This document shows, piece by piece, positions 7,942 to 38,602 of a stretch of 40,690 nt of DNA (within the stretch, counting starts at the first letter, position 1; each line of letters starts with the position of its first letter). Source of the DNA: a virus. Its lineage: Duplodnaviria > Heunggongvirae > Uroviricota > Caudoviricetes. Under the pieces are notes generated by a model. It did not search any database, was not told the origin of the DNA, and saw only the letters and a program-made list of their open reading frames with translations. The stretch lies in IMG/VR virus record IMGVR_UViG_2541047843_000008, one strand, 5' to 3'. Position numbers and translations under genes: made by a program.

Positions 7942-7949
7942 CGGGCGGT

Positions 7950-8896: not shown

Positions 8897-8977
8897 TAGT
8901 TTTTTATGGACGAAACAAAAGTCAGTGCTACACTCATTGACGCCACATTGAGGTGGCTTATAGATGGAAATGTCACA

Positions 8978-9139: not shown

Positions 9140-9161
9140 AAACAAGGCCGCGAAAGCGGCC
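9136..9161 (-). terminator. Rho-independent terminator for the minus-strand membrane gene
   Basis: Stem GGCCGC / GCGGCC with GAAA loop; U-run on the minus-strand side (TTGTTTTT). Confidence 0.5.
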
Positions 9162-9170
9162 TGTGACATG

Positions 9171-9467: not shown

Positions 9468-9663
9468 GTAGTCACCTAATTTACCCAGTAAAAATAAGAG
9501 GCCTCCCCTCAATAAGGCTTGCAACAAGAACTACTCCCTGCACAACAAAGATGAACCAGCAAATAGCTTGAGTCTGAGGGTTAAGAAAATATTTGTAGCG
9601 GTCAATAAATAACAATCCACCAGAAATTATCACACTCAAAATAATTAAAAACACAACACTTCC

Positions 9664-12138: not shown

Positions 12139-12143
12139 TTAAT

Positions 12144-19936: not shown

Positions 19937-20544
19937 CAGGACAACCTCGCAATGGTAAACTCGTCAACCGGTGGCTGTGGTTCCTGTGATTCATTCTGGC
20001 TATGCGAGCCAGCACTAAGAATCACGCGATTGTACATATTGAGAGCAAATGTACCGAGATCCGCATTCCCAGTCAGCGCCATGTTAATGGCTGCCGCAAG
20101 ACGCCAGGCCAGCGCCTCCATAAAAATGGCATCAAACATGTTTACATCTGAAACGCGAGAGACATACTTGAGCCATGCCTGAGGCTGGTCTGTGTAGATC
20201 AACTTTCCTGTTCCGTTGGTGTCTGCACCAACTTCGTACTGAACGCGCATTGCTGCTGTTGGATTGCGTACACCAGGAAGCATAATTTCAGTAATGCGCA
20301 GACAATCTGACGGGTACTGGTACGCATATTCCCAGTCAGGCGGTGGATTGCTCGTATCTGCAAGCGCCACGCGTTTGGTAGCAAAGTTCCAGTCAAAATC
20401 AGAAAGCACAGCATCACGGCAGGCCTCAAAGTGCAGCGAACATTCCCCCGCTTCCTTGCTGGCTTCCGTCAGGCTGTTAATGCTGCGGCTGTTGCCAATA
20501 TTGGACAGCGCACGATTACAGATCTCTACTACAGAGGCCATCAC
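19936..20544 (-). CDS. Tail tubular protein A-like (adaptor), T7 gp11 position
   Basis: 202 aa directly before the gp12-like gene with overlapping stop/start. Confidence 0.5.
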   Translation of the reverse strand: MMASVVEICNRALSNIGNSRSINSLTEASKEAGECSLHFEACRDAVLSDFDWNFATKRVALADTSNPPPDWEYAYQYPSDCLRITEIMLPGVRNPTAAMRVQYEVGADTNGTGKLIYTDQPQAWLKYVSRVSDVNMFDAIFMEALAWRLAAAINMALTGNADLGTFALNMYNRVILSAGSHSQNESQEPQPPVDEFTIARLS

Positions 20545-20864
20545 TCACCTCCGTTACCGTACAGAGTTTCAGCCGCTGATTTTTCTACATCCCCGGAAAC
20601 AGGAGCGATCGCCATATCAGTGATCTGCAGATCGGCGCTGCGATTAACACCATCGTCAGTTTCTCTGGCAGACAGGCCTCGAATAACAGCCTTTGCAGTT
20701 ATCATCACTTCTGTTCCGACGCCCTGAGGTTGCGCCTTCAGCTTATTCAATGTGTCGTTATTAAGAGTGATGCACAGCCCCCACGGGTATTCATCGCGAG
20801 TTCTGGTTTCTCCGCTCTCATCCTGGTAGCTGTCAGTGCCGGTTTTGAGGTTTACGAGTTCCAT
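20541..20864 (-). CDS. Hypothetical virion protein
   Basis: ATG with AGGAG SD immediately after a GC-rich hairpin. Confidence 0.4.
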   Translation of the reverse strand: MELVNLKTGTDSYQDESGETRTRDEYPWGLCITLNNDTLNKLKAQPQGVGTEVMITAKAVIRGLSARETDDGVNRSADLQITDMAIAPVSGDVEKSAAETLYGNGGE

Positions 20865-20880
20865 ATACACTCCTGCAATA

Positions 20881-20896
20881 AAGGGGCCGAAGCCCC
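20881..20896 (-). other. Intra-operon stem-loop (AGGGGC / GCCCCT, UUCG loop in the transcript) after head genes
   Basis: Perfect 6-bp GC stem with tetraloop followed by UUAUUG and then SD/ATG of the next gene. Confidence 0.45.
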
Positions 20897-20914
20897 TTGT
20901 CTGATCCGCGAGGC

Positions 20915-21259
20915 TTACACGCCCAGTTCTTTACGCTTATCTGCGATCTTCTCGCGGAGCGTTTCGGCTTTGGCGTTATGGTGTGGCTTCTCGTTAAAGA
21001 GCAATTCGTACTCTTCACGGAGCTTATCCAGTTCACCATCATCTGACACGTCGTTGATGATTTTGGTGCTGGTTGCTGCCATTGACACCTTTCCTGCAAC
21101 TTTTGCTTTTGCCTGTCTGGCTGCATCGTTAACAGGTTCCAGTGCGCTACCAGGCTCACCTTCGTATTCGATTTCTGCCCCCTCCGGCCACAGAGTGTTA
21201 TGGATATGAGAGAGGCGCAGAACGCGGTATCTTGGTTTCTCACCTGACATCGATATCAC
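20915..21259 (-). CDS. Hypothetical head-associated protein
   Basis: ORF in structural operon, coiled-coil C-terminus. Confidence 0.4.
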   Translation of the reverse strand: MISMSGEKPRYRVLRLSHIHNTLWPEGAEIEYEGEPGSALEPVNDAARQAKAKVAGKVSMAATSTKIINDVSDDGELDKLREEYELLFNEKPHHNAKAETLREKIADKRKELGV

Positions 21260-21260
21260 C

Positions 21261-21698
21261 TTAACCAGTTACTTTTGAGCGGATCGGATACGGCGTATTG
21301 GCATCAACATCAAGACTGATACCAGCAGTGAATTCGCCAGCCGTTAGTGGGCCAGTTGCGACGGAGTAGTTAACACGCAGATATCGCTGAACACCGGCAG
21401 GCACCTTTGCAGAAACAACTCGTTTACCTGCTGTCAGGGCGGTCTTTGCCAGTGCGCCACTATCATAAATAGTGGTCCATGAGCTGTTATTCTCACTCGT
21501 CTGCAACTGGATGTTTACAGTTGCATCACCGCTTGCTGCGGCGGCTGTGTTAACCAGCGCCCAAAACTCAAGCGGGTAACCCACGCCGATATCACGACGT
21601 TTTCCGTCAATTGGACCGAGATCGATTACGTCAGTAGAAGCCGCGGTATTCGTAACCGCCTGAGCTTCGGAGAACATCAACAGTTTGTCGGTGATCAT
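21261..21698 (-). CDS. Hypothetical virion structural protein (possible capsid decoration)
   Basis: 145 aa, Thr/Ser/Ala-rich beta-type composition, directly after the capsid gene. Confidence 0.45.
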   Translation of the reverse strand: MITDKLLMFSEAQAVTNTAASTDVIDLGPIDGKRRDIGVGYPLEFWALVNTAAAASGDATVNIQLQTSENNSSWTTIYDSGALAKTALTAGKRVVSAKVPAGVQRYLRVNYSVATGPLTAGEFTAGISLDVDANTPYPIRSKVTG

Positions 21699-21713
21699 CT
21701 TCTTTCTCCATTA

Positions 21714-21733
21714 GTGGGTCTGTTACGACCCAC
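21714..21733 (-). other. Stem-loop (GTGGGTC / GACCCAC) between capsid and next gene
   Basis: 7-bp inverted repeat with 6-nt loop, followed on the minus strand by GGAG and ATG. Confidence 0.4.
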
Positions 21734-21749
21734 AGGTTAATAACAGGCG

Positions 21750-22742
21750 TTACACCACGCGGGCTTCTGTTTCCAGAAGCGCATCAGTTTCACGGATTGG
21801 TACACCACGGAATGAAGTCCACCACTCGCCTTCTGTCTCTTTTACGCTGATAGCCAGAGATGTTTTCTCCAGAGACTGCAGATCAAGAGCCTGGCCTACA
21901 GTGCGGTTCATGTAGAACACCGGGCGGCCCATGCCACGGTTTGGAATGCGATGTAGTGCTTTAACCATCAACTTCGCAATATTTGCGGCAGAGGATGGTT
22001 CTGAAAGATTGCTGACATCGATGTTTGCAATGCGAACAACATAACGCCAGTCACGCAGAGCAAGTCCGTTATCCCATTTGTAATGGGTGCGATAGCCTTC
22101 GTACTTGCCGCCATTAGCATCTTCCAGTGTCACCTGGCCTTTATCTTCCATCTGGATGCCAGCCTTCTGCCCTTTCGGGAAGATGCCATGCACGGTGTTT
22201 TCGCCCCACACCACTAACCAGATTGAGGTGTTATCTGTACCCGTGCCACCAGCATCAATGATGTTCTGAGCATTACCCGCAGACAGGCTGGAATAGCGGG
22301 AGGACAGTCCCATAAACTGCTGAGGGTTAACGCTGGAATCACCATAAAACAGCGTCTGCGCCATCTGCTGATTCATCGCTTCAATAAATGCGCGGTCTTC
22401 AGACAGGCGGAATTCGGCGGTATTGCCGTTCAGATCAGCCAGTGACTTATCGACTTCCGCATAGGTTTCCAGCATGCCAACGGAATCGGTTACCTGCACT
22501 GTGGTTGATTTGCTTGGCTGTACGCCATAGTTCAGCAAACGCCAGGTAGCTGAAGGTAAACCAGAACGAATGGTGGTTCGGTGTCCGGTAGGAAGGTTCC
22601 CTTCGACAAAAGGCATATCCTGAAGGATCGGGTTAGTTTGACCGAGAAGCTCGATAATCTTATCGACTTTCCCGTTTTGATCGACGCGCTTACCCCAGTC
22701 AGCCAGCGTTAGCGCAGTTAAGCCTTTAACAGCCATTGTCAT
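21750..22742 (-). CDS. Major capsid protein
   Basis: 330 aa immediately after the scaffold gene; classic portal-scaffold-capsid order. Confidence 0.7.
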   Translation of the reverse strand: MTMAVKGLTALTLADWGKRVDQNGKVDKIIELLGQTNPILQDMPFVEGNLPTGHRTTIRSGLPSATWRLLNYGVQPSKSTTVQVTDSVGMLETYAEVDKSLADLNGNTAEFRLSEDRAFIEAMNQQMAQTLFYGDSSVNPQQFMGLSSRYSSLSAGNAQNIIDAGGTGTDNTSIWLVVWGENTVHGIFPKGQKAGIQMEDKGQVTLEDANGGKYEGYRTHYKWDNGLALRDWRYVVRIANIDVSNLSEPSSAANIAKLMVKALHRIPNRGMGRPVFYMNRTVGQALDLQSLEKTSLAISVKETEGEWWTSFRGVPIRETDALLETEARVV

Positions 22743-22750
22743 TTCCTCTC

Positions 22751-23452
22751 TTATTTGCCATAGAGCACTTCGGCCGCACTACGCTGGCCTTCATTACCAC
22801 CGGTGACCATGCCATCTTCAGACATCGCCTTTCCGATTTTCACGAACGTTTTGACCAGATCAGGGTGATTACCCAGCCCGGTGGTGTTCAGATATTCTTT
22901 GAGTTCAGGTGTCCCGAACTGGTCAAGCGCACGCTGTGCGGCGCTAAGGTTAGAAATCAACTTGTCGCCACCGATTTCTTTGTCGGCTTTTACATCCGCA
23001 GCCCACTGCTCGGTTGTTTTCTGCCAGGCTTCTGCCTGGCGCTGCTGAACACCTGCCAGAATCTTCGGATAAGCATCAACCAGCTTTTGCGCTTGCTCGT
23101 TGGTCAGGTTTAGTTCTCGCGCCACCGGCTCGAATTCCTTCAACGCTTCTGTATCCAGCTCTACGCCTTCGGCAGCCTGAAACTCGTACTTTTCAGGCGC
23201 ACCCTCTGGTTTATCGCCGTCCTTTTTTTCATCCTGCTTATCGTTTTCAGGCTTTTTGTCATCAGCAGGTTTATCGCCATCAGCAACAGGTTGTGGCTTA
23301 TCACCTTCCTGTTGTGATGGATCACCAACTGGAGCAGGGTTATCACCTGCAGGCGCTGACGGTTCTGACGCAGCCGGAGCTGCTCCACCATCGACTGGTT
23401 GCTCATTGCAAAGACGGCGATACAGCAAACGCTCAAATAAATTCATGATCAC
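22751..23452 (-). CDS. Scaffolding protein
   Basis: Acidic, Pro/Asp/Lys-rich low-complexity N-terminal half and helical C-terminal half, between portal and capsid. Confidence 0.6.
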   Translation of the reverse strand: MIMNLFERLLYRRLCNEQPVDGGAAPAASEPSAPAGDNPAPVGDPSQQEGDKPQPVADGDKPADDKKPENDKQDEKKDGDKPEGAPEKYEFQAAEGVELDTEALKEFEPVARELNLTNEQAQKLVDAYPKILAGVQQRQAEAWQKTTEQWAADVKADKEIGGDKLISNLSAAQRALDQFGTPELKEYLNTTGLGNHPDLVKTFVKIGKAMSEDGMVTGGNEGQRSAAEVLYGK

Positions 23453-23745
23453 TCCTGTTCACTGGCCTCTTTGGCCATCTTCAAATACTGTTCAGGGCAA
23501 TGCGCCATAACGCGCTGAAACAGTTCCAGCGCCAGATTGCGTTGCCCCTCATTAAATGCCATTGCCATAGCATCCATCGGAGAGATAGCGGAAAACACCC
23601 GGCCTTTCTCCAGCACCGACCAGACAACGCGACGCCCCTGTTCACTGCTCATGACAAAGCGAATGTCATCAATTTCACGCTGCTCCATGTCACGTTGCTT
23701 ACGGGCGTTTTCTTCTTTCAGTTGATCGTCTTCGTAATCTGTCAT
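23449..23745 (-). CDS. Hypothetical protein between portal and scaffold
   Basis: 98 aa, overlapping start/stop with neighbours. Confidence 0.4.
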   Translation of the reverse strand: MTDYEDDQLKEENARKQRDMEQREIDDIRFVMSSEQGRRVVWSVLEKGRVFSAISPMDAMAMAFNEGQRNLALELFQRVMAHCPEQYLKMAKEASEQE

Positions 23746-25421
23746 TGTGATTGCCCACCCTGACCACTAACTGCATTCGCCATAGCTGACAAAACACTCG
23801 GATCCGAAGTTTTAGCTTCGCTTAGCGTCTTGGCGCCCTGTGCCGCCGCCATCCCCATCGCCATCATTTGTTGCTGCTGTTGCTGCTGTGCCCGTTGCTG
23901 GCGAGCCTGCTCAACCTGTTCCTGCGGAACAATGACGGTTGGAGACACTCCGGACATATCAGCGAATGCATCGATCGCCTGATCAACGTTGAGTTTGTCG
24001 AGAGCTTCTGGTTTCGCTTGCGCAAGTTGACCAATGAAGTTAACCGTGGACGCCAGACTGGACAGGCCGATAGACTTCTGCGCCTGAGCCATGACGGAAA
24101 TGTATTCGACCTTCAGGGGCATACCTTCCATCACGTCTGGCGGTGGCGGCAGCATGTTTTTACGCACCATCATCGAGAAAGAGCGGTCAATGAGAGGATT
24201 AAGACATTCGTCGTTCAGACGCTCCAGAACCGGCCCCAACATCAGAAGTTTTTCTTCTTTCATTTCGATCACCGCTTCAACAGGCATCGAGCGGGTATTG
24301 ATGTTCTGCAACATCATGAACAGATCGACAAAGTAGGCGCTGTTAATGATTTGACGAGTGTCCTGAATGTCTGCCACCAAATCTGCTGTACTGGGGTTAA
24401 CCAGATAAGCAGGCCTGAAACCATCCTGACCAGTAATCTGATCGATATACGTGATGTCGCCAGGAAGAAGGGAGGCACGCTGATTCTTGAGGGAAGTCGG
24501 AGCAACCATCGGCGGATTGGTGGCTTTATCAATCAACTGCGACTTGCGCTTCTGGAGAAGCTGCAATGCCTTAACAGGTCCAAGCGCCAGCATACCCGGG
24601 CATGATGATCCATAAACATCTTCGCCGTTAACTTCCCAGCGCGGAGCCATAATTGGAAACTCATCGAATCCGGACTCACGCAACAACTTGTCGTTATCGC
24701 CACCAACCTCGTAATAAACCGATTTGAATGGCTTGTTCTTGCTATCCAGCTTCGATGTATCGCGGTCAATGTTCGGGTAAACCGAATGCATCACTTCAAT
24801 CCACTTCTCGTAGGTTCCGCTTTCCCACATGCTTTTTACGGATTCGCTGACGTTATTTAGCCCGAACTCCTGAACAAGCTGACGAACAGTCATAGAGAAC
24901 TTGCGAAAACAGGTGTCCACACTGCCACGAGGTGAGTTAGCCAGGTAGTAACTGCCTATCGGGAATGGCATTGTGCGAATGATGTCCTCGTCATCCTCCA
25001 GCACTGCCATTGCACCAGTGCTGTATGTGCCGAGGCTTCCGTATAACTGCGGCAGCGACTGATAGAGATTCGACTTATTGAACATATCGTTCATGCGGTT
25101 CTGCACCGCCTCAAGCCACAACTTAACAGGGCCATAATCCATCATTTCAGGATCTGGCGTAGCCAGGCGAAACCACGGACGCGCGGGGCTTGTGATGCCT
25201 GACATCATGCCGCTGGCGAGAGTGCGCGCCGCCATAGTCCCGGTCGAATCAATAATGCGTGTATTGCGTCGATCGTTACGGTTGGCCTCAGAAGTCAGAA
25301 AGCGGGAACCACGCGGGTTGATGTAATCACTCAACTCGCGCCAGTGCGGCTCGAACGACTGACGCTCGCTTTCAAGTTGTGCGAACTGTTTGTTCAATCG
25401 CTCTTTAGTTGTTTCCGCCAT
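23742..25421 (-). CDS. Portal (head-tail connector) protein, T7 gp8-like
   Basis: 559 aa; Gln/Met/Ala-rich C-terminal tail as in T7 gp8 as recalled; GGAG SD. Confidence 0.8.
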   Translation of the reverse strand: MAETTKERLNKQFAQLESERQSFEPHWRELSDYINPRGSRFLTSEANRNDRRNTRIIDSTGTMAARTLASGMMSGITSPARPWFRLATPDPEMMDYGPVKLWLEAVQNRMNDMFNKSNLYQSLPQLYGSLGTYSTGAMAVLEDDEDIIRTMPFPIGSYYLANSPRGSVDTCFRKFSMTVRQLVQEFGLNNVSESVKSMWESGTYEKWIEVMHSVYPNIDRDTSKLDSKNKPFKSVYYEVGGDNDKLLRESGFDEFPIMAPRWEVNGEDVYGSSCPGMLALGPVKALQLLQKRKSQLIDKATNPPMVAPTSLKNQRASLLPGDITYIDQITGQDGFRPAYLVNPSTADLVADIQDTRQIINSAYFVDLFMMLQNINTRSMPVEAVIEMKEEKLLMLGPVLERLNDECLNPLIDRSFSMMVRKNMLPPPPDVMEGMPLKVEYISVMAQAQKSIGLSSLASTVNFIGQLAQAKPEALDKLNVDQAIDAFADMSGVSPTVIVPQEQVEQARQQRAQQQQQQQMMAMGMAAAQGAKTLSEAKTSDPSVLSAMANAVSGQGGQSQ

Positions 25422-25435
25422 TTCAATGACTCCGG

Positions 25436-25642
25436 TTACTGACCAAGCAGCGTTTTACCGCTGGTATTAGCGGTTGATGTGTCACCCTGAGAACCGGTAA
25501 GCAGCGTAGAACTACGACCAGCAGCAGCGCGACGGCGACGAGTTTCTTCGTCGCGGGCATCAACAACGGCGGCATCCTGCTCCTGTGGTGCTGCCTGAAC
25601 TTCTGGTGTTGCAGGCACTGACGGTGAGCTACCCATGCACAT
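25436..25642 (-). CDS. Small hypothetical protein preceding portal
   Basis: ATG with a GGAGTCATTGA translation-initiation region that is duplicated in front of the portal gene. Confidence 0.4.
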   Translation of the reverse strand: MCMGSSPSVPATPEVQAAPQEQDAAVVDARDEETRRRRAAAGRSSTLLTGSQGDTSTANTSGKTLLGQ

Positions 25643-25710
25643 ATCAATGACTCCGTACGCAATTAAATTATTACCAATTTAACCACATATGATTTATTTA
25701 TCGTAGATAG

Positions 25711-25747
25711 TTGACATTTAACGCACGAATTATTACCTTTCAGGTAA
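25711..25747. promoter_or_regulatory. Promoter-like region (TTGACA) with operator palindrome TTACCTTTCAGGTAA upstream of tRNA moron and portal operon
   Basis: TTGACA hexamer at about 25711-25716; perfect palindrome at about 25733-25747. Confidence 0.5.
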
Positions 25748-26069
25748 GCAAATGGTTCATTCCGGTTATTAACCTGACTGGCTTGTCGTTAAATTGAACA
25801 GGTGGAGTGAGCTTTTATTTTGAGCAGTACGGCGTATGGCACATGCGCCGATAGCGGTCTGGATACGTTTAAGGGGCACCCTCCCTTGCTCGGGCAAACG
25901 AACCAGGTAGCCGGAATGTGCAAGTCGAGCGGTTTTATTCCGCGCACGGGGATTCACCATCCCGGCGATTCGGTGTGACGCCTCGGAAGAGACGAGGGTA
26001 CAACGATGAGAGCATTTATGGAGCCGCGACAAAGTGTGGTGCCTTAACAGGCTAAGTGCTCTCAGCGTT

Positions 26070-26146
26070 GTGGCATTAGCTCAGTCGGACAGAGCAACCG
26101 CCTTCTAAGCGGTTGGTCGCAGGTTCGAATCCTGCATGCCACGCCA
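26070..26146 (+). tRNA. tRNA-Arg (anticodon UCU, reads AGA), phage-encoded
   Basis: Cloverleaf read by hand: acceptor GTGGCAT/ATGCCAC, D-arm GCTC..GAGC, anticodon loop CUUCUAA, T-arm GCAGGTTCGAATCCTGC, discriminator G, CCA end. Confidence 0.9.
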
Positions 26147-26189
26147 GAATCACGCCTAAGGACCGTGATGCCAGAAGTTCCAGGTGCTT

Positions 26190-26232
26190 GGCGGTGATGG
26201 TTTCCCTTGAAGGACTATCACCGCCCTTTTTA
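26190..26232 (+). terminator. Rho-independent terminator after the tRNA
   Basis: 9-bp stem GGCGGTGAT / ATCACCGCC followed by CTTTTTA. Confidence 0.5.
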
Positions 26233-26349
26233 CAGCAGGACGCCATTGCGATGACTTCATGCTGTAAACCAGTACAGCCACGGAAGGCATAACTCATTGC
26301 TTCCAGTTCGCCCGGTTCGCAGGGCATTTTTTTAAGGTGAGATTAGACT

Positions 26350-26721
26350 ATGAGTGAAAAAGACATTGAATCTGAAATTCAGGCTAAAGGTTTAGCCGCG
26401 CCGCGCGTTACGCCAGACCATATCGAGAGCATTATTGCTCAGGAGGCATATTTCACAGCAGAAGATGGTGCCTTTGGCGTAGCCATAAAAGCGAAACATA
26501 CTGGCGGAGAGGTAAACTACCAGCCGCACGAATCACTTTCTCTGCTGACGTTCTGCGTCCTGGTGCTGCGCAACGGCTTCACCGTCACCGGAGAGAGCGC
26601 CTGTGCAAGCCCGGAAAACTTTGATGCAGAAATTGGTCGGAAGATTGCCCGACAGAATGCTGTAAACAAAATCTGGATGCTCGAAGGTTACTTGCTGAAG
26701 CAGAAGTTAAGCGAGCAATAA
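26350..26721 (+). CDS. Hypothetical moron protein downstream of the tRNA
   Basis: ATG with AAGGTGAG SD; opposite strand to the flanking packaging and head genes. Confidence 0.55.
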   Translation: MSEKDIESEIQAKGLAAPRVTPDHIESIIAQEAYFTAEDGAFGVAIKAKHTGGEVNYQPHESLSLLTFCVLVLRNGFTVTGESACASPENFDAEIGRKIARQNAVNKIWMLEGYLLKQKLSEQ

Positions 26722-26741
26722 CACCGTGACATATCACAAAC

Positions 26742-26768
26742 AGCCAGCCTATGAGCTGGCTTTGTTTT
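26742..26768. terminator. Putative terminator between moron gene and terminase large subunit
   Basis: Stem AGCCAGC / GCTGGCT with 6-nt loop followed by TTGTTTT. Confidence 0.45.
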
Positions 26769-26811
26769 ATCCTCATCAGAGGATATCAACAACATTATCC
26801 CCTCAAGCGGA

Positions 26812-28287
26812 TTAAGCATAGGGATCGTAATCTGTAATGGCCCTTCCCTGCTGGCTTTGCTGTCCTGGTATATTTATGCGTTTCGAGACCGGGAAAGCAA
26901 ACGTCAGCAGTAGCGCATCGCCTTTACCCGGCGAACGCCCAAGCCGCTCCTTGATATCTTCCTTCGGTTCGATAACGATTTTACCGTCCACTCGAACTTT
27001 GTACTCTGCCGCCGACAGGTCGTCCGCTGTTTCCTGGTCATCCAGCATGCCGCCCAGCCTCAGCCATGTCTTGCATGAGTTGAACATCTCCCCACGCTTG
27101 TTGAGCATCTGCGGGTCAGTAGACGCGCCACCGAACGGAACAAGTTGCCATGTACGACCCCAGCCGTCACCGATTGACTTCAAACCGGTTCCGTAACCGA
27201 AGTCGATGAACACCGCGTCAGCCTGATACTGGTCTTCAAAGTCAGCGATACGCTTCGCCATAATCAGATCGTCGGTAGTCTTGTTGCCAGTCCACAGCAC
27301 CTTACTGTGTAGCCCCTGCCGCAGGTATATCACAGCGTCATCAACGCCGGAGTATGCCGGGTCAACGCCGATTATCACCGGAGCATGTGCAACCTGCGCA
27401 GCGGTTACCACCCGTTTCATTGCCTCGTCAGTAAGACCGGTAGGGATAAACTGCAATTCAGATGCATCAGGGAATATGCCACGCACACGGATTTTAACGA
27501 AGTCGCTGTCTTCCCCGTAGTCATCAACCCATTTCTGCAACTGCTGTTTGTTGGTACCTTCCACCGTCCGACTGTCAATCTGCGCAGTTTTCCAGCGGTG
27601 TTTATACTTGCGGAAACATTCACGGAAACGTCCGGTATTACGCGTCGGGTTTCCGAACGCCACCCAGATAATCTCAGTGTCTTCGTCCGTTAGCGCACCT
27701 TCGGCAACTTCCCACACCAGATCCGCAATGTTCGACGCTTCATCAAACACCACGATGATGCGTTTGCGCTCGTTGTGTAGTCCGGCGAACGCCTCAGTGT
27801 TGTGCTCAGACCAGGGTATTGCGTCAGCACGCCACCGCTTGTCGTGCCCAGGGTCATTGCTGTACATCGCGGTAGCGGTACAGGTAAACCAGTCTTTCGT
27901 GATAGCAAGGTTCGACCACTTGATAATTTCCGGCCAGGTCTTCGTTCGTAGCTGGTTGTCGGTGTTGGCGGTCACCACGACCTTACAATCCTCGCAAGTG
28001 GACATGCCCCAGTTGATCAGCATTGAGATGAATGCGGATTTACCAATACCGTGACCAGAAGCACGTGCCAGCATAAGCGGCTGATATCTCGTCTCTGGAT
28101 TCTGCAGGTGATCACGTATCTCTCGGAACGCATCGGCCTGCCACTGACGTGGACCGGTGGCATGTGCCAGTTCAGTACCCTCTTCCCCCCACGGGAACGC
28201 ATAGAGGGCATAGCCAAGCGGATCGTGAGTGAACCCTGCAATATCCTCGATCAACTGCTCTTCAGGAGATAACGCTGTATCTGTCAC
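26812..28287 (-). CDS. Terminase large subunit
   Basis: 491 aa; Walker A-like ASGHGIGKS; acidic nuclease-type C-terminal half; GTG start overlapping the TerS stop. Confidence 0.9.
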   Translation of the reverse strand: MTDTALSPEEQLIEDIAGFTHDPLGYALYAFPWGEEGTELAHATGPRQWQADAFREIRDHLQNPETRYQPLMLARASGHGIGKSAFISMLINWGMSTCEDCKVVVTANTDNQLRTKTWPEIIKWSNLAITKDWFTCTATAMYSNDPGHDKRWRADAIPWSEHNTEAFAGLHNERKRIIVVFDEASNIADLVWEVAEGALTDEDTEIIWVAFGNPTRNTGRFRECFRKYKHRWKTAQIDSRTVEGTNKQQLQKWVDDYGEDSDFVKIRVRGIFPDASELQFIPTGLTDEAMKRVVTAAQVAHAPVIIGVDPAYSGVDDAVIYLRQGLHSKVLWTGNKTTDDLIMAKRIADFEDQYQADAVFIDFGYGTGLKSIGDGWGRTWQLVPFGGASTDPQMLNKRGEMFNSCKTWLRLGGMLDDQETADDLSAAEYKVRVDGKIVIEPKEDIKERLGRSPGKGDALLLTFAFPVSKRINIPGQQSQQGRAITDYDPYA

Positions 28288-28880
28288 TGATTACCATCCT
28301 GACGTTCTTTGAGTCGCTTCCTGGCTGCTGCTATGCGATCAGCAATTGTCACATTCACATTAACATCCAGACGTTCTTTGAACGCGTTGACATCAACATG
28401 CTTACCAATCAGCTCAAGGTTCTTCACCTTGTCAGGCCATTTAATTTTTTTGAGGATTGTCTCTATCGAATCCTCGTTCATGTTCATGATGGTCGATGAC
28501 AGATCAAAGCCACTAAGCGTAGTGCGCCAGATTTTCGGCCACTCGCGGATTGGCTTAAGGCTCCCATCGTCGTTGAGGATGTCGATCACGTCCATCTGGT
28601 CGATCTCCACCAGGCGCATGAGAACGTAATCAGCACTGACGCGCATTCGTTTGTTGCGCTCCTCCATCAACTCGGCAATCCGTTTTTGAATGCGTTCATC
28701 GCGCATCATGACACTGGCTTTAACTGCCGCTGTATTTGGGGAGAATCCTGCGTTAATCGCTGCCTGAGTCTGGTTTTCAGGCGTTTTGATGTATGACTGG
28801 CAATAAGCCTCCTGCATTGCTGTTAGTGGCTTAAATTGCGTTGATTTGCGTTTATAGGTTTTAGGTTCAGCAGGCATCAT
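28284..28880 (-). CDS. Terminase small subunit
   Basis: KPLTAMQEAYCQSYIKTPENQTQAAINAGFS matches the common terminase small subunit N-terminal HTH pattern; start taken at internal ATG after a terminator. Confidence 0.7.
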   Translation of the reverse strand: MMPAEPKTYKRKSTQFKPLTAMQEAYCQSYIKTPENQTQAAINAGFSPNTAAVKASVMMRDERIQKRIAELMEERNKRMRVSADYVLMRLVEIDQMDVIDILNDDGSLKPIREWPKIWRTTLSGFDLSSTIMNMNEDSIETILKKIKWPDKVKNLELIGKHVDVNAFKERLDVNVNVTIADRIAAARKRLKERQDGNQ

Positions 28881-28887
28881 AACCACC

Positions 28888-28916
28888 GTGGTAATAGTTA
28901 CCGTTGTGGTAATAGT
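28888..28916. repeat. Tandem direct repeat GTGGTAATAGT x2 in the terminase leader
   Basis: Two 11-bp copies 18 bp apart, between an upstream terminator and the TerS start. Confidence 0.5.
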
Positions 28917-28931
28917 ACCATGCAAAATAAA

Positions 28932-28955
28932 GCCGCCATAGTTGGCGGCAGTATT
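28932..28955 (-). terminator. Rho-independent terminator separating nin-like genes from the packaging/late operon
   Basis: Stem GCCGCCA / TGGCGGC with 4-nt loop, U-run (UUUAUUUUG) on the minus-strand side. Confidence 0.5.
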
Positions 28956-29188
28956 CAAAGTCCATCAAATTCATCGTAAAAACTCTCGTCAAGATACCCT
29001 TCCCATTTACCGCGAATGAAAATTACATCCTCGCCGCAAGGGTGCTGACTGTCGATAACTATATCCCTCCTGGCGCAACCATACTTATGCATGAGAAATT
29101 TAACCTCTTTCGGAAAATTTGCTGAGTTATCTCTCATATCTTCAAGGTCGTAGCGTATTTTTGGCATAACACCTTCGTGACATGTCAC
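28955..29188 (-). CDS. Hypothetical protein
   Basis: 77-aa ORF in nin-like block. Confidence 0.4.
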   Translation of the reverse strand: MTCHEGVMPKIRYDLEDMRDNSANFPKEVKFLMHKYGCARRDIVIDSQHPCGEDVIFIRGKWEGYLDESFYDEFDGL

Positions 29189-29526
29189 ACTATTAATTTC
29201 GTTTCATGCCAGCCTTTGGTCACCCAGCATTGCGAGTCACCATTACACGGGCATGAATTAACTGGAACTCTCTCGCCGCACTTACCGCAACGTTTTCTGC
29301 TGATCGATTTTATACGCCCGCGCACGCGTGCATCATCCTGGCGGATCAGTAACGCTATATACTCACCAAATTCGTAAGGCGCACGCCCGGGGCGACGCGT
29401 GGCACAGTTACGCTCCAGCATTTCAATTTCCTGAGCATCAAGCACAATCTCCAGTTTACGCACACCAGATGCAGCTTGTCTGGCTCTCTGAGCGGCTTTG
29501 CGCTCTGCTGCTGATTTAGCCATCAA
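29185..29526 (-). CDS. Hypothetical Cys-rich (zinc-finger-like) protein
   Basis: CGKCG...CPCNGDSQC cluster; basic N-terminus. Confidence 0.4.
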   Translation of the reverse strand: MMAKSAAERKAAQRARQAASGVRKLEIVLDAQEIEMLERNCATRRPGRAPYEFGEYIALLIRQDDARVRGRIKSISRKRCGKCGERVPVNSCPCNGDSQCWVTKGWHETKLIV

Positions 29527-29797
29527 TATTCACCTTTATCGCGAACACCTTTACCGGTTTATCGCCGAAGTGCGGATGTGTGATTGTCTTGATTTCATAT
29601 CCGTCATACGGGACGTCAATTCTGCGGCTGGAATCGTCGCGCTTCGGATATCCCTTTGTGATAATCAGGCGGTCATACTCGCGGAACATAATTCGCTTAT
29701 TCCAGTAGTCATTACACAGGCGATACTCTTCCGTTTTCTCTCCGCGAATCATGGCATCGAAGTATTCACCTTTAACGGCAAGTTGCAGGTTAGCCAC
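29516..29797 (-). CDS. ASCH/PUA-like (DUF3850-type) small protein
   Basis: N-terminal LAVKGEYFDAMIRGEKTEEYR resembles the ASCH-domain start. Confidence 0.45.
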   Translation of the reverse strand: MANLQLAVKGEYFDAMIRGEKTEEYRLCNDYWNKRIMFREYDRLIITKGYPKRDDSSRRIDVPYDGYEIKTITHPHFGDKPVKVFAIKVNIDG

Positions 29798-29880
29798 GAC
29801 CTTCCTCCTTTGGCTTGTGAATTTGTATCGTCATGCCGCTTTGAGTGGTGACTACAACGACAGAACCAGGCTGAAGACTG

Positions 29881-30078
29881 TTAAGATTGAATGCTTCGTA
29901 AAACGAAGCCAAGGCCAGCGCTTTTTTTATTCTTTCGGTTCCACCAACGCCATCCATTGCTACAGGCTACACTGACAATCCACTGTCCACTCCTGTAAGC
30001 CATATAAAACCAGATGAGCAAAACCTGAATGAATGCTATCCAGTCAATAATCGTATATTTCGCGAAGGAGACCATCAA
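29881..30078 (-). CDS. Small putative membrane protein
   Basis: 65 aa with one hydrophobic segment; start overlaps upstream stop. Confidence 0.3.
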   Translation of the reverse strand: MMVSFAKYTIIDWIAFIQVLLIWFYMAYRSGQWIVSVACSNGWRWWNRKNKKSAGLGFVLRSIQS

Positions 30079-30509
30079 TTAACCTCCTGCGGCGGTTCCG
30101 GTAGAGGCATCCAGTACAAGGCGTTCCCTAACCACGATAAAGTGCCGTCGCTCAACTCCACGTATTCCCCTTGTACCTGTCCTGCCATATACTCGCCGTG
30201 CTTTGAATAAATTAAAATCCAATCATCTTGAGGGGGCATTCGCTCACTACAGCTTATCCAACCATCCGGAGTTACCGGATAGTTGCCCGACAGCTCGTTC
30301 AACTTGTAAGTTTGGCTTACAGGTTCTGCACTATCAGCTTCGCGCCGCTTCTGTAGCTCTGCTGCCATCGCTCTCACGACTTCAACTGGTGCCCTTGCAG
30401 CAAACTCTATGTTGGTGATCAGCTCATTAAGATATTGCTCGCCTGGATACTGTTTCTTATCGGTTATAGTGGTCATATCACTCTCCTTTGATGCGAATGC
30501 CTGTTGCAA
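30075..30509 (-). CDS. DUF551-type phage protein
   Basis: C-terminal WISCSERMP...W...Y pattern typical of DUF551 as recalled. Confidence 0.5.
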   Translation of the reverse strand: MQQAFASKESDMTTITDKKQYPGEQYLNELITNIEFAARAPVEVVRAMAAELQKRREADSAEPVSQTYKLNELSGNYPVTPDGWISCSERMPPQDDWILIYSKHGEYMAGQVQGEYVELSDGTLSWLGNALYWMPLPEPPQEVN

Positions 30510-31026
30510 TGCTGTTTATGATGCTGTCAGTGCATGGGGTAGAAAGCTGGGCATCTCCAGCAATTTTCATGACCTCAACATCTGCATATCGAATACCGAG
30601 GTGTATCAGACCGGCTATGCCTGACTTAAGCCGAGCATTTTCCATAAATAGAACTTTTGCCCGCTGTTTTTCTGCTTCAAGCTCAACGCGCAGCTTCCCT
30701 ACCGTTAGCGCAATATCCTCGTTCTCCTTGTCGCGGGATTTTATGTATTGCTGGTTTCTTTCCCGTTCATCCAGTAGTGCCAGCGCAACATTTGGATTAA
30801 AGGCAGCAATAAATTCAGCGTTTGCGTAAGCCTGAGCATCTGTTTCAACCAGGCAGTTAACATGACATTCTGCAATCACGCCACCGGGTTCTCCTTTCCA
30901 TTTTTGGCAAACAAAAACTCCTGTTAAATTGCCGTGCTGGTTAACAGATGTATGCCCTACGATGTAGCTCCCTTTCGTTGCCTTTTCTGCCGCATCACGC
31001 AGTGCCTGATAATTAATTTCGCTCAC
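30478..31026 (-). CDS. Ead/Ea22-like protein
   Basis: N-terminus MSEINYQALRDAAEKAT resembles Ead/Ea22-like prophage proteins; coiled-coil middle. Confidence 0.45.
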   Translation of the reverse strand: MSEINYQALRDAAEKATKGSYIVGHTSVNQHGNLTGVFVCQKWKGEPGGVIAECHVNCLVETDAQAYANAEFIAAFNPNVALALLDERERNQQYIKSRDKENEDIALTVGKLRVELEAEKQRAKVLFMENARLKSGIAGLIHLGIRYADVEVMKIAGDAQLSTPCTDSIINSIATGIRIKGE

Positions 31027-31247
31027 TCTTCATCCTCCAAGTCGGCAACGGCGTCCATCACATCAGAACCGCGAATAACCTCAAAAGCACGGCAGGCCAT
31101 TTGAAATACCAGTTGCTCTTGCGGGTGAGGAGACTCCCAATATTTGAAGCCTGGGCGATGCGTGTACCCCATCATTGAATAAAAATCACCAGCAAGCTTA
31201 ATCGCGGCATCGACAAGCTCTCTGTTAGTCATTCTTTTTCCGCTCAC
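31023..31247 (-). CDS. Hypothetical protein
   Basis: 74-aa ORF with coupled start/stop. Confidence 0.35.
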   Translation of the reverse strand: MSGKRMTNRELVDAAIKLAGDFYSMMGYTHRPGFKYWESPHPQEQLVFQMACRAFEVIRGSDVMDAVADLEDEE

Positions 31248-31539
31248 TGGCTGCCTCCTTTACTGGGCTTTCGAATGTATCAAACTCAAACAACTTAACT
31301 ACGTCATCAAACAGGACATAATCGCCATCAGAATCTTCAGTCATGTCAGCGCCACAATCCTGACCGAACGAGTCACAACCATCCATATCAAGCTCGTATC
31401 GCTTGAGTTTTGCGATATTTGATAAATTCAGCGCCAGTACAGCAAGGTCATAAACCTCATCAGCGGTATACCCGGCACCATGCCCATACATTTCAATACG
31501 GGATATGATTTCTTCTACACGTTGTTTTGTGATCGTCAT
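31225..31539 (-). CDS. Hypothetical acidic protein
   Basis: 104-aa ORF in nin-like block. Confidence 0.35.
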   Translation of the reverse strand: MTITKQRVEEIISRIEMYGHGAGYTADEVYDLAVLALNLSNIAKLKRYELDMDGCDSFGQDCGADMTEDSDGDYVLFDDVVKLFEFDTFESPVKEAASERKKND

Positions 31540-31952
31540 TTTTGCTCACCTTCCTGTTCTTCCAGAAAAATACGCATAGCCTCAAGCATCTCTTCGGTAT
31601 CATACGGAGACAGCTTGTCACGCAGGATGTGTTCAATGCTGTTAATGAACTTGCGGATTGCTTTGCGTTCAATTTCAGCCAGGAAAGCGTCGGTGGCTGG
31701 GGTTTCCGTGAAGTTGTCCTCCCAACCGTAGTACTCCTGACGACAGAAGTTATTAAATTCCTTCTCCGACTGTTTAAGCCCAGCATTCTCCGCTGCCAGC
31801 GCATTAGCACGCACCAGTTGCACTTCCAGTTGCGTTGCCAAATCGCTGATCAGCTTTGCCACACTGCGCATATCAACGGCACCACATTCTGCGTTCAGTT
31901 CCGAAGCCATCTCATGCCCGGCGGCAACTAACCCTTTGATATTACTTTCCAT
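31536..31952 (-). CDS. Hypothetical protein
   Basis: 138-aa ORF in nin-like block. Confidence 0.4.
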   Translation of the reverse strand: MESNIKGLVAAGHEMASELNAECGAVDMRSVAKLISDLATQLEVQLVRANALAAENAGLKQSEKEFNNFCRQEYYGWEDNFTETPATDAFLAEIERKAIRKFINSIEHILRDKLSPYDTEEMLEAMRIFLEEQEGEQK

Positions 31953-32013
31953 CTTTACCCTCGCTTATCCACATAACTTATTGATTACATTGATAACTAA
32001 AAAGATCGTCGAT

Positions 32014-32358
32014 TCAGAACTCTTCGATGTTCCAGCCGCCACCTGCTTTCTTTGGTTTAACCGTTACCCCGATGATTCGGAACGGATACTGATCTGCGGC
32101 GACTTTGGTTTTCACCCTGGCGTCGTCGGTCCAGAAACCTTTCACTTCGTGCAGTTCCATCTCTCCGGTGGCGAGCATCACAGCGAAATCTGGCGTATAG
32201 AACGTGTTGTCAGCTAACCGCAGCTTGATACCCTCGAATCGATACCAGGCGATTTCCCCTGCACGTTTACGCAGCTCAAGGTGCTGGCAATACGCAGATT
32301 CAGTTTTGTTCATCTGGCCTGTTTTGAGTCGACCAAGAGCCTGTATCTGTTTTCTCAT
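32014..32358 (-). CDS. DUF1064-type phage protein (nuclease-fold family)
   Basis: 114 aa with the AYCQHLELRKRAGEI...FYTPDF...HEVKG pattern. Confidence 0.55.
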   Translation of the reverse strand: MRKQIQALGRLKTGQMNKTESAYCQHLELRKRAGEIAWYRFEGIKLRLADNTFYTPDFAVMLATGEMELHEVKGFWTDDARVKTKVAADQYPFRIIGVTVKPKKAGGGWNIEEF

Positions 32359-32361
32359 GAT

Positions 32362-32438
32362 TTACCTCTGAGGTAATTAAAAACCACATAAGACATGAAA
32401 TCAATAGAGTTTACAATATTTTGTTACCTAACAGGTAA
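32362..32438. promoter_or_regulatory. Regulatory hub: two TTACCT-N3-AGGTAA palindromes (about 32362-32376 and 32424-32438) flanking an AACCACATA element
   Basis: Two perfect palindromes about 62 bp apart between the P-like stop and the DUF1064 start. Confidence 0.5.
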
Positions 32439-32475
32439 TTATCGAGGCGTAAAAAAATGCGCTATCGCGCTGGTA

Positions 32476-33252
32476 TTACTTGATAAATCCTGCCGCCTTT
32501 CCCCGCCTGTATTCCTCCATCAGCCACTGCGCCGGTGTTATTCCCCCAAGGGTGGCGGCGTTAGGCATGCACCCGAAACTTCGCCCTGGTGGATGGTAAA
32601 CGTCTCTCCCTGTGTCCGGAGGTGTACTCATGGGCTCTGGCTTTGCCTGTATGCTGATCACCGGATCGGGTATCTGCTGTCCGGAAGCCACCTTTTTCGC
32701 CCAATCATCGAGCAGCCTGCGCGCGTGTTTCTCAACCTCACTCTCGCTAAGCTGGCGCTGATACATTGCACGACGGGTATCACATACGACCCAGTACATA
32801 ACCGGATGCCGCCACGGGAATCTTTCGGGACCACCAGGATATAAACTTTTTTCCTTGCTGTACCGGTGAAACTCCGCCATCACATCGTCAATGGTGACGC
32901 CAAGAACCATCTTGCTGTCTTTGCACCACTTGATGAATTGCCCTGGCGACGGCCAGAACGGAGATTCACTGGCGCGGGCGTGGCGCATACCAGCGTTAAC
33001 CTGTTCCATTGTAGTGATCCCATTCTCCAGAAACGCAAGCATCCATTGCTTACGGAATTCATTAAGTTTGTTCTGCTCCCTTATGGTCGAAACGCTTGCA
33101 GGAAATGCAGCCTGTAACTGGACAAATAGTTCATTGAAAATTCTAGCAACCTGCTCCTTTTTGCCATTGCTGTCACGCCGCTCTTCATGCACAGCAACAC
33201 CATGCTCACGTAAGCGATCGTACTCATTGAGAAGTTCTGGAGTTGATTTCAT
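32476..33252 (-). CDS. Replication protein P-like (DnaB helicase loader)
   Basis: Long colinear similarity to lambda P as recalled: FPAS...NEFRKQW.LAF.ENGITTMEQVNAGMR.AR...PF.PSPGQF..WC. Confidence 0.8.
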   Translation of the reverse strand: MKSTPELLNEYDRLREHGVAVHEERRDSNGKKEQVARIFNELFVQLQAAFPASVSTIREQNKLNEFRKQWMLAFLENGITTMEQVNAGMRHARASESPFWPSPGQFIKWCKDSKMVLGVTIDDVMAEFHRYSKEKSLYPGGPERFPWRHPVMYWVVCDTRRAMYQRQLSESEVEKHARRLLDDWAKKVASGQQIPDPVISIQAKPEPMSTPPDTGRDVYHPPGRSFGCMPNAATLGGITPAQWLMEEYRRGKAAGFIK

Positions 33253-34066
33253 CCCACACCCCTTCTATCCAGTCAGTGTTATTCCAGTCAAGCTCATCGC
33301 TTTTCCCGGCATTTTTTGATTTTCCCCTGATATGATTTACGTGCCTGGCGAATTTTTGTTCCCACTGAACCTGCGTGAACACTTTGCCCTCAGCCATCCA
33401 GTAATCCCGGAATGCAGCAAGTTCAGCAGGTGTAAATTCCGGTTCCGGCAGGGCCGTTCCCCACAGCGCAGCACGCCGCCGAAAATCTGGCGACGGTAGC
33501 CAGCCATCTGTCATCGGAAATTTCCCGATGGGTTCACTCAGGCCATCCAGAAATTCAGGTTCTGCCACCTGCAACGGCGTACTGTTCGCTTCACTGGTCG
33601 GAGCACCCTCGCGCACGTGCGCTATGTGTGGGGTTTTATATATATCTTCCTCTTCCTCTGGTAACTCCTTTTGTAACGCTGTTGGCGTTACTTTTTGCGT
33701 TACTCGTTTTCGATGCTCTGCCACTCTTCTATTCGTAAGTGCACGTTTTTTCGATGATTCTCCATTATGTCGCTCAAAGTTTGGAAGAATTAGTTTGCCG
33801 TCATGATAAGCAAGCCATCCGACGCTAATGAGGGCGTCAGCAAATCCTGTAATAAAAGCGAGTCTATCAAGTACTCCTTTTGTAACGCTGCCAGCGTTAC
33901 CGTCTATTGTTTGCTGGTCAGCCCATGCCCATATACGAACCAGCTTTCCAAGAACAGCATCTGGATCAATACCCAGAATTTCTGCTATCTGAAAAATTTC
34001 AGGTTTATCAGGAGTGATAACTTCAACCTTAATCCAGCTGCTTGCCATAGGTTTCCCCTCTTGCAC
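33224..34066 (-). CDS. Replication initiator (O-like position), with internal origin-like repeats; start may be internal ATG near 34048
   Basis: Directly upstream of and coupled to the P-like gene; contains two copies of a 27-bp palindromic element. Confidence 0.55.
   Translation of the reverse strand: MQEGKPMASSWIKVEVITPDKPEIFQIAEILGIDPDAVLGKLVRIWAWADQQTIDGNAGSVTKGVLDRLAFITGFADALISVGWLAYHDGKLILPNFERHNGESSKKRALTNRRVAEHRKRVTQKVTPTALQKELPEEEEDIYKTPHIAHVREGAPTSEANSTPLQVAEPEFLDGLSEPIGKFPMTDGWLPSPDFRRRAALWGTALPEPEFTPAELAAFRDYWMAEGKVFTQVQWEQKFARHVNHIRGKSKNAGKSDELDWNNTDWIEGVWDEINSRTSQ
33665..33900. repeat. Two copies of a 27-bp element CTCCTTTTGTAACGCTGnnnGCGTTAC (palindrome GTAACGC-N5-GCGTTAC) plus an extra half-site; candidate origin iterons
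   Basis: Copies at about 33665-33691 and 33874-33900 lie in two different reading frames of the same gene; extra GCGTTAC at about 33696-33702. Confidence 0.55.
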
Positions 34067-34389: not shown

Positions 34390-34620
34390 TCATGAGTAGA
34401 AGAAGTATGCCAGTTCTGCTTTTGAGCGCAGCCATTGTCTTGTTTTACAGGCTTTAAAAAGCCCATTCATCAATACCTTACCTGGCATTTTGCGCTTGCC
34501 TGTTAAGTGAGTCTGGATATAGTGACTCGTCGTTCCGGCTTCCTGTGCGAAGGCTTCACGCTCATCCGGAGTAAGTGCAAGCCAGTGCTTTTTGAAATCG
34601 AAATGTCCGTTATCGCTCAT
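34390..34620 (-). CDS. Cro-like HTH regulator
   Basis: 76 aa, HTH-like segment, divergent from the repressor gene across the operator cluster. Confidence 0.55.
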   Translation of the reverse strand: MSDNGHFDFKKHWLALTPDEREAFAQEAGTTSHYIQTHLTGKRKMPGKVLMNGLFKACKTRQWLRSKAELAYFFYS

Positions 34621-34774: not shown

Positions 34775-35359
34775 ATGAAAAGTATCCAGGACGTCCGCAG
34801 GCAAAATCTCAACGACTTGATCGACCGTGAATTCAATGGTGTTCAGACGCGGATGGCAGAAAAACTTGGAACTCAGGCAAATCTGGTAAACCGCTGGGCT
34901 CTTGGCAAGAAGGTTATCGGCGACCAGGTTGCACGAAAAATTGAAGCTGCCGCCAATAAACCCCGTAACTGGCTTGATATTGATCGTTCGCTTTCTCAGG
35001 AGGGTTTTCAGCCTGTCGGCCCGAGCGATATAGGTCAGCTGGCGGCTCACAATCTGGAACGCTGGATGAGCGAAAGCCGCGACCTTTCAACACAGGGAAA
35101 ACTTCACCGCGCATCCGGCGTCGCCCAGGTGACAATCAGCCGCCTGTTAAACAATGAGGTCAGCGTTTCCATTTCCACCCTGGAGAATGTTGCATCCGCA
35201 TTCGGGCGTCACGGATATGAACTACTGATTCACCCGCACGACCCTGCGACTATCAACTATGACCGCTCACGCTACGCATTGTTACCCGAAACCGAGAAAG
35301 CAAAGATCGAAAGTTACATTGAATTTGTCATCAACCAGAACGAAAAAAGCAAACAATAA
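34775..35359 (+). CDS. Repressor candidate with two XRE-type HTH domains and no LexA-like autocleavage domain
   Basis: HTH-like segments VQTRMAEKLGTQANLVNRWALGKK and LHRASGVAQVTISRLLNNEVSVSISTLENVASAFG; own terminator downstream. Confidence 0.6.
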   Translation: MKSIQDVRRQNLNDLIDREFNGVQTRMAEKLGTQANLVNRWALGKKVIGDQVARKIEAAANKPRNWLDIDRSLSQEGFQPVGPSDIGQLAAHNLERWMSESRDLSTQGKLHRASGVAQVTISRLLNNEVSVSISTLENVASAFGRHGYELLIHPHDPATINYDRSRYALLPETEKAKIESYIEFVINQNEKSKQ

Positions 35360-38302: not shown

Positions 38303-38602
38303 GTGAGAAAGTTAAGCCGACTTGAAAAATATCACATGAATAAGGTTTCAATGCGCAGTCCGTCAAAGATTGTCGCCGTTACTCCTGCGGCGATAGAGAT
38401 CGAAAAACGCGCGATTGAAAGAGAGAAAAAAGGGCAGTTCCGCATTGCCGCTCACCTTTGGCTTCAGTGTATGGATGTTGCTTCTGGTGATGTTGAGCGT
38501 GCAAGGATCGCGGTTCGCAGGGACCAATGTATCACAAAAGGTAACGGCCTTCGCCGTGGAGACTATAGCGGTATAGGATGTTGCGGGGTGGTTTATGACT
38601 AA
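38303..38602 (+). CDS. PerC-like transcriptional regulator candidate (start may be ATG near 38336)
   Basis: Segment KKGQFRIAAHLWLQCMD resembles the PerC-family core as recalled. Confidence 0.45.
   Translation: MRKLSRLEKYHMNKVSMRSPSKIVAVTPAAIEIEKRAIEREKKGQFRIAAHLWLQCMDVASGDVERARIAVRRDQCITKGNGLRRGDYSGIGCCGVVYD

Follow-up and report, generated by a model that had tools for sequence, protein, structure and literature searches.

Candidate repressor operators and a putative promoter between a predicted terminator and the terminase genes of an epsilon15-like prophage

Genes on either side of the TerS start

The window, by which we mean the whole stretch of DNA analysed (40,690 nucleotides, one strand, IMG/VR record IMGVR_UViG_2541047843_000008), comes from a phiV10/epsilon15-like (Uetakevirus) prophage of Escherichia coli. 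Positions 28284..29800 are 78-99% identical to phiV10-, TL-2011b- and epsilon15-like podoviruses of the genus Uetakevirus, and 283 of 5426 complete E. coli genomes carry most of this stretch. About 10% of the window is non-coding. The element described here and the genes around it are read on the minus strand. An accessory block of nin/ea-like genes (DUF1064, Ead/Ea22, DUF551, DUF4752 and ASCH-like) lies upstream and is followed by a 113-aa gene, a 77-aa open reading frame, the element itself, TerS, TerL and a bidirectional terminator. Lysis genes lie on the minus strand at 3087..1290. The genes nearest the element are:

29185..29526, minus strand: 113-aa gene, homologue of epsilon15 gp49 (phrog_536, 'transcriptional regulator'), with a Cys-rich C-terminal part
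28955..29188, minus strand: variable small ORF, listed with 77 aa; follows the 113-aa gene and precedes the terminator
28284..28877, minus strand: TerS, Terminase_2 family (Pfam E = 1e-29), start ATG 28877
26812..28287, minus strand: TerL ORF, second and last gene of the TerS-TerL unit; the phiV10 record has a terminator after TerL
26761..26742, both strands: bidirectional terminator after TerL, from the terminator scan

The small ORF is the least constant member of this series. Its true start is probably ATG 29167; its match to phrog_1541, a family of unknown function, begins at residue 11. It is missing from TL-2011b, phiV10 and epsilon15, and its spot is taken by other small genes in BUCT554 and a Klebsiella phage. 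At the other end of the element TerS opens with ATGATG at 28880..28875. We set the start at 28877 by the conserved N-terminus MPAEPK, shared with epsilon15, Tyrion and BUCT554.

Within the element itself, four features follow one another on the way to TerS:

28924..28949, minus strand: predicted intrinsic terminator; stem GCCGCCA/TGGCGGC (28949..28932), loop ACTA, tail TTTATTTT (28931..28924)
28920..28912, minus strand: putative extended -10, TGgTACTAT, without recognisable -35; predicted start near 28905
28913..28897, minus strand: O-a, candidate operator, ATTACCACAACGGTAAC; ATTACC-ACAAC-GGTAAC, one mismatch to ATTACC-N5-GGTAAT; overlaps the -10 and the predicted start
28895..28879, minus strand: O-b, candidate operator, ATTACCACGGTGGTTAT; ATTACC-ACGGT-GGTTAT, one mismatch, 18 bp from O-a

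The hairpin had been taken, in a reading made from the sequence only, for a terminator that ends a nin-like block, and we arrive at the same view from its canonical features, its position after the last ORF and its annotation in relatives. The terminator scan gives a stem of 7 bp with 6 GC pairs, a loop of 4 nt and a U-rich tail directly 3'. Its energy of -13.8 kcal/mol is similar to that of this prophage's other terminators. It begins 6 nt past the TGA stop (28957..55) of the 77-aa ORF, where the last upstream ORF ends, and the epsilon15 and phiV10 records label the homologous hairpin a rho-independent terminator. In an alignment of nine distinct lineages the hairpin is present in five and absent in four; in those four a different small gene stops 14 nt before the TG of the -10. 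Terminator-like sites are common in this part of the window (15 observed in 26000..34000, 7.9 +/- 2.8 expected). The prediction, then, is of a canonical intrinsic terminator that closes the accessory block.

Two palindromes of a dispersed motif

What first draws the eye beyond the hairpin is a repeat. Two exact copies of ACTATTACCAC stand 18 bp apart on the minus strand before TerS; on the plus strand the 11-mer GTGGTAATAGT occurs exactly twice in the window, at 28888..98 and 28906..16, 18 bp start to start, and GGTAA-TAG-TTACC lies at 28890..28902. All of these had been reported by the sequence-only reading, and all were located, in the direction of the genes. The window holds two further close direct repeats of 11-12 nt, both within long ORFs, so an 11-bp repeat alone is not beyond chance.

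The functional unit proposed earlier, an 11-bp tandem repeat or a GGTAA-N3-TTACC dyad, has to be replaced. As a tandem repeat or iteron the 11-mer is exact in one lineage only, the phiV10 group; what the other lineages have in common is just the half-site (A/T)TATTAC(C/T). GGTAA-N3-TTACC arises where two dyads meet, and BUCT554 and an Erwinia prophage have N5 in place of N3. The unit is instead a pair of 17-bp palindromes, ATTACC-N5-GGTAAT. The 11-mers are the left halves of two adjacent dyads plus flanking bases. Both the 11-bp repeat and the GGTAA-N3-TTACC dyad would thus be by-products of two palindromes placed 18 bp apart, and for annotation the repeats are better read as two operator dyads. 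O-b spans a Shine-Dalgarno-like GGTGG (28887..83) and the first ATG. We also considered an RNA structure over the TerS ribosome-binding site and set it aside: the fold z-score is -5.6, but tandem palindromes pair with each other by construction, and the score is not independent of them.

The palindrome is not peculiar to TerS. The window contains 14 matches to ATTACC-N5-GGTAAT at two mismatches or fewer, against 1.03 expected, and none of 100 shuffles reaches 14. The ten copies with at most one mismatch are all intergenic or touch a gene start. Four lie beside the gene for the presumed repressor (34656, 34704, 35416 and 35478), in this setting:

34775..35359, plus strand: Rep, presumed repressor for O-a and O-b, matching the SPC32H Rep structure 5D50 (E = 3.5e-42)
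34620..34390, minus strand: cro-like gene, divergent from Rep

The motif occupies the space between these divergent genes, where in relatives the sites abut at 17-bp spacing. Just downstream of Rep there are two to four copies, one of which overlaps a perfect TTGACA-17-AATTAT promoter. A pair at 62-bp spacing in front of the DUF1064 gene overlaps TTGATT-17-TTTAAT. The pairs 35416/35478 and 32361/32423 are 61-63 bp apart centre to centre, a spacing kept in six prophages from other genera (L014-L019), which suggests looping by a Rep tetramer.

Relatives from seven genera keep the motif at the same spots, and its spacer varies. Six prophages, two from Citrobacter and one each from Pseudocitrobacter, Erwinia, Klebsiella and Scandinavium, repeat this map down to the pair before TerS; epsilon15 and BUCT711 share it likewise. 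None of the relatives examined, BUCT711 and the six prophages of other genera included, departs from this motif or from this Rep family, and no heteroimmune relative was found among them.

At the TerS site itself, the alignment of nine lineages distinguishes the two palindromes. On the left side of O-a the bases TG, TA and TATTACC are invariant; the right half-site GGTAA is invariant save for one G-to-A change in the Erwinia prophage (AGTAAT). The N5 spacer of O-a occurs in seven versions (ACAAC, AAAAC, ATAAC, TGCAT, TTCAT, AAAAT and TAAAA). Of the nine lineages, six have O-b with two mismatches or fewer and one has a 1-nt insertion in it; the two Klebsiella lineages carry a degenerate form. 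Part of the conservation of O-b could be attributable to the ribosome-binding site. O-a and O-b are 18 bp apart, except that BUCT554 and the Erwinia prophage have 20 bp.

Which protein would bind such a motif? Its place around the repressor and cro-like genes and at the head of early operons fits a repressor operator, not a late-activator, antiterminator or pac site. The epsilon15 record NC_004775 labels the homologous 16-bp site (12..27, just before TerS) 'protein_bind: repressor'. It annotates seven repressor sites in all, including six in the immunity region or before other operons, with the common dyad ATTACC-N5-GGTAAT. The window Rep and epsilon15 Rep share 43% identity and, in the N-terminal part, a conserved NLVNRW segment. 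From this genomic logic and the NC_004775 annotation we infer that Rep binds the motif; the palindrome is probably a prophage repressor binding site. A tetramer of Rep reportedly binds palindromic sites (PMC9638917), which fits paired operators. In phage ZX5, repressor overexpression lowered the transcripts for endolysin and holin by over 99.9% (PMC9782041), a loss compatible with either direct or indirect repressor control. A protein of the window also matches PHROG anti-repressor (Ant) families.

Several features elsewhere in the window are recorded here beside the motif map. A tRNA-Arg gene (anticodon TCT, 26070..26146, plus strand) lies opposite late genes, under the ORF annotated p04 in phiV10. 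It appears to be its own unit, with TTGACA-17-TACCTT (25711..25748) overlapped by an operator at 25732..25748 and a 14-bp-stem terminator at 26190..26225. On the plus strand, just upstream of ant (7285..7941), Rfam finds an isrK Hfq-binding RNA (67.7 bits) and a C4 antisense RNA (61.2 bits) at 7050..7126 and 7151..7235. Downstream of ant, at 8013..9139 (plus strand), an operator over a TTGCAG-17-TACTAT promoter-like site heads three genes of unknown function (phrog_5933, 1651 and 3117), of which the phrog_3117 gene also matches a membrane-associated 'moron' family. A block of about 70 nt near 25620..25700 (minus strand), before the gp3/portal genes, is near-invariant in eight phages and more conserved than its surroundings; it holds an extended -10-like TGgTTAAAT, with a full operator about 60 bp upstream. 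The sequence CATATGTGGTT(T/A) occurs on the gene strand (minus) at 6577..6588, 25680..25691 and 32381..32392, upstream of the tailspike, gp3/portal and DUF1064 units; its enrichment is marginal (11 against 5.7 expected at two mismatches). Finally, the operon downstream of Rep includes a gene for a PerC-family 'transcriptional activator' (phrog_868, 38303..38602, plus strand), a candidate for late or host gene control.

A putative promoter and the readings that compete with it

The putative extended -10 has no -35 and received no call in a consensus promoter scan at 28920..28912, and the argument for it comes from the alignment. TGnTA(C/G/T)TAT is invariant in all nine lineages, while the sequence upstream falls into two unrelated classes, and homology between the two classes starts at about the TG. 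Such retention of TGnTAnTAT beside unrelated upstream sequence marks out an extended -10 promoter of the kind that works without a -35. TGgTACTAT shares its final two bases with the beginning of O-a (the AT of ATTACC), and the same register is seen at TTGACA-17-AATTAT (35478) and TTGATT-17-TTTAAT (32361). A promoter probably stands before TerS, its activity being predicted from these sequence features.

The reading we prefer, to which we give a probability of roughly 0.6, has a terminator and, after it, a promoter of TerS-TerL under the control of Rep. The intrinsic terminator would stop transcription arriving from the accessory-gene block. Three nucleotides past it would lie a -35-less extended -10 sigma-70 promoter; O-a would cover the -10 and the start site, and O-b the leader, the ribosome-binding site and the start codon. 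Transcription starting near 28905 would give a 25-28-nt leader with GGTGG, then TerS and TerL, and end at the terminator beyond them. In a lysogen an SPC32H-type Rep would sit on both operators, probably as one tetramer (a stoichiometry that we infer), and block RNA polymerase. With stray upstream transcription excluded by the terminator, no terminase would be made in the lysogen. Inactivation of Rep, in this family by the Ant antirepressor, would free the promoter. Direct Rep control alone leaves the delay of the packaging genes relative to the early genes unaccounted for.

Part of what had been proposed for the site survives. It was described as a late promoter or late regulatory site at the entry to the packaging/late operon. 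Regulatory DNA does lie before TerS, with a promoter probable, and TerS-TerL does begin here. The late-activator or antiterminator part is not supported, the motif being distributed as a repressor operator would be, and TerS-TerL is only a two-gene unit with its own terminator (26761..26742), not the whole late operon.

Could the Rep sites stand here without a promoter? Transcripts from the promoter at 32361 would then pass a leaky terminator and supply TerS-TerL, and bound Rep would be a roadblock or an anchor for looping, resembling the 'stoperators' of mycobacteriophage L5. The missing -35 and the silent promoter scan favour this, as does the position of the sites just inside the start of the TerS-TerL unit; in the four lineages without the terminator the upstream gene abuts the operators, and co-transcription is plausible. 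Against it stand the invariance of TGnTAnTAT, in the same operator register as two better early promoters, and the start of homology between the two classes at about the TG, as expected for a functional module that begins there. We consider a promoter-less site unlikely.

A second proposal leaves the operators as a lysogenic lock only and looks for the timing of late genes elsewhere, in the 113-aa gene and a palindrome of its own. The palindrome is found near terminators:

29177..29188, 26726..26737 (one mismatch) and 9163..9174: perfect 12-bp palindrome GTGACATGTCAC

The first copy overlaps the stop codon of the 113-aa gene; the second lies beside the terminator after TerL and the third beside the terminator that ends the structural operon. 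The palindrome is invariant at the corresponding positions in epsilon15 (L013: 39612, 2142 and 19517) and phiV10. Copies lie at 3785 in L021 and at 8267 in L024. In six other prophages the DNA compared reaches the first two sites only, and both are kept, one copy having a single mismatch. In the Pectobacterium myovirus ZF40, which is unrelated, the palindrome also stands after the homologous gene, and in N15 a variant, GTGACTGGTCAC, overlaps the stop of gene 46. A 14-mer, TGTGACATGTCACG, is present in 120 IMG/VR contigs, 46 of which encode a homologue of the 113-aa protein; in 40 of these 46 the palindrome lies within 40 nt of the 3' end of that gene, at protein identities down to 46% and in contigs without an epsilon15-type terminase. 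The linkage of the 113-aa gene to GTGACATGTCAC, judged across these genomes, is solid. One possible use of the palindrome was tried and rejected: its GTGACA as a -35 feeding the terminator fits epsilon15 but is not conserved, by eye, in phiV10-type sequences.

The protein itself offers few clues. It has 726 close homologues, all unnamed, with invariant cysteines; its sequence has no Pfam, NCBIfam or PDB match. An AlphaFold model of low confidence (pLDDT 61) has a strand and helices in the N-terminal part, and Foldseek found no meaningful match to it in the PDB (E > 6). The proposal is that phages without Q have an undescribed late-timing system in which the 113-aa protein reads GTGACATGTCAC, as DNA or as an RNA hairpin, and modulates termination. 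Through modulated termination, one late transcript would span the early, the packaging and the structural units; the function so assigned is conjectural. It is weakened by the occurrence of the 113-aa gene together with Q-like genes in ZF40 and N15, from which we conclude that the gene is not simply a substitute for Q. We hold such a system to be distinctly unlikely as stated.

The same protein enters a third account, in which the repeats are the site of a late activator or antiterminator and a second -10-like element, AACTAT, is a sigma-70 pause for a Q-like factor, possibly the 113-aa protein. The -10-like element is indeed duplicated, AACTAT following TACTAT by 18 bp in what would be the early transcribed region, and a promoter that looks weak might need help. 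The 113-aa protein is predicted to bind DNA and is conserved in all relatives, and its gene stands where lambdoid phages have Q. The motif itself argues otherwise, since it flanks Rep and cro and heads early operons. The sequence upstream of the -10 is not conserved, which leaves no upstream activator site, and the second -10-like copy is lost in several lineages (AATTAT and AAAATT, for example). Nor does the layout agree: a Q-type arrangement has a promoter and then a terminator to be read through, and here the terminator (28949..28924) precedes the only promoter-like element (28920..28912). No Q-family, sigma or Ogr-like gene was found among the 24 early-region, accessory and regulatory ORFs scanned, in agreement with the earlier remark that no Q-like gene is evident. 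As for the suggestion that the Cys-rich 113-aa protein is the late factor, we see no link to the ATTACC dyads, only to its own conserved palindrome elsewhere, and ZF40 and N15 have genuine Q-like genes beside a member of its family. On balance a late-activator site here is improbable.

In SPP1, TerS is likewise of the Terminase_2 family and binds a series of repeated boxes around its own gene start. By that analogy the repeats might be a pac-type element bound by TerS to start headful packaging, as had also been entertained from the sequence. The position directly before TerS resembles the SPP1 arrangement, the Terminase_2 match agrees with it, and phages such as Tyrion are circularly permuted headful packagers (PMC5754475). 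The motif is dispersed, however, over at least ten good copies genome-wide, including the immunity region; it is not specific to packaging and alone cannot specify a unique pac. Records that start near the element do so by convention. A pac function is highly improbable.

It is scarcely credible, lastly, that the repeats are coding (TITT..TITT) in a TerS that starts at TTG 28958, 27 codons upstream: the frame is open from there and the phiV10 (41..715) and PAS61 (12387..13061) records begin TerS at the equivalent TTG, but the long frame crosses the terminator hairpin, lineages with different upstream sequence and no hairpin have no counterpart of its extension, the conserved N-terminus reads MPAEPK, and the TL-2011b, epsilon15 and Tyrion records have a short TerS of 594-597 nt. 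On the strength of the MPAEPK conservation and the missing extension we reject the long form; phiV10-type TerS starts have probably been called 27 codons too early.

Comparison with known systems

If Rep does sit on a terminase promoter, widespread prophages silence packaging directly and not only through the early-to-late cascade. Such control would bear on phiV10/SPC32H reporter-phage design and on induction, a modest, family-level point. The more open lead is the 113-aa gene with GTGACATGTCAC: is it part of late timing in a temperate phage that lacks Q?

The nearest familiar arrangement is that of lambda, whose OR and OL contain tandem, partly symmetric 17-bp operators over -10 and -35 elements, common to the repressor and Cro and bound cooperatively. 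O-a and O-b are likewise tandem, partly symmetric 17-bp sites over promoter elements; here sharing with a Cro is only possible. In lambda these operators are known only at PL and PR, and the late genes are under Q. Here, in contrast, the operator also stands before the packaging genes, the tRNA unit, the tailspike and other units, at spacings of 17-18 or 62 bp. The lambda Q/PR'-tR' region offers a second parallel: a terminator and a short regulatory region at the nin-like/late boundary, with a small putative DNA-binding gene upstream. It differs in that no Q homologue was found here among the ORFs scanned, the terminator comes first with the putative promoter after it, and the repeats agree in sequence with the immunity operator.

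Dispersal of repressor sites recalls L5 more than lambda. The gp71 stoperators of L5 are asymmetric 13-mers that act on elongation in one orientation; they are dispersed between genes, late regions included, and silence the whole prophage. The prophage studied here likewise has many dispersed intergenic candidate repressor sites, but its sites are symmetric 17-mers, several of them over promoter elements.

Closest of all are the members of its own family. The window has both a homologue of the SPC32H Rep and a match to the Ant family (PDB 5D50/5D4Z; Kim and Ryu 2013; Kim et al. 2016). In epsilon15 (NC_004775; Kropinski et al. 2007) there is a hairpin terminator at the end of the record, a dyad before TerS and six further copies. 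The layout of terminator and repressor site was thus already predicted for epsilon15 and is largely ordinary. Where epsilon15 has one site annotated before TerS, a second adjacent site is present there with two mismatches, unannotated. Relative to epsilon15, what is proposed for the window is the second candidate operator and the extended -10 that overlaps O-a; the window differs further in the inserted 77-aa ORF and in a Rep of 43% identity.
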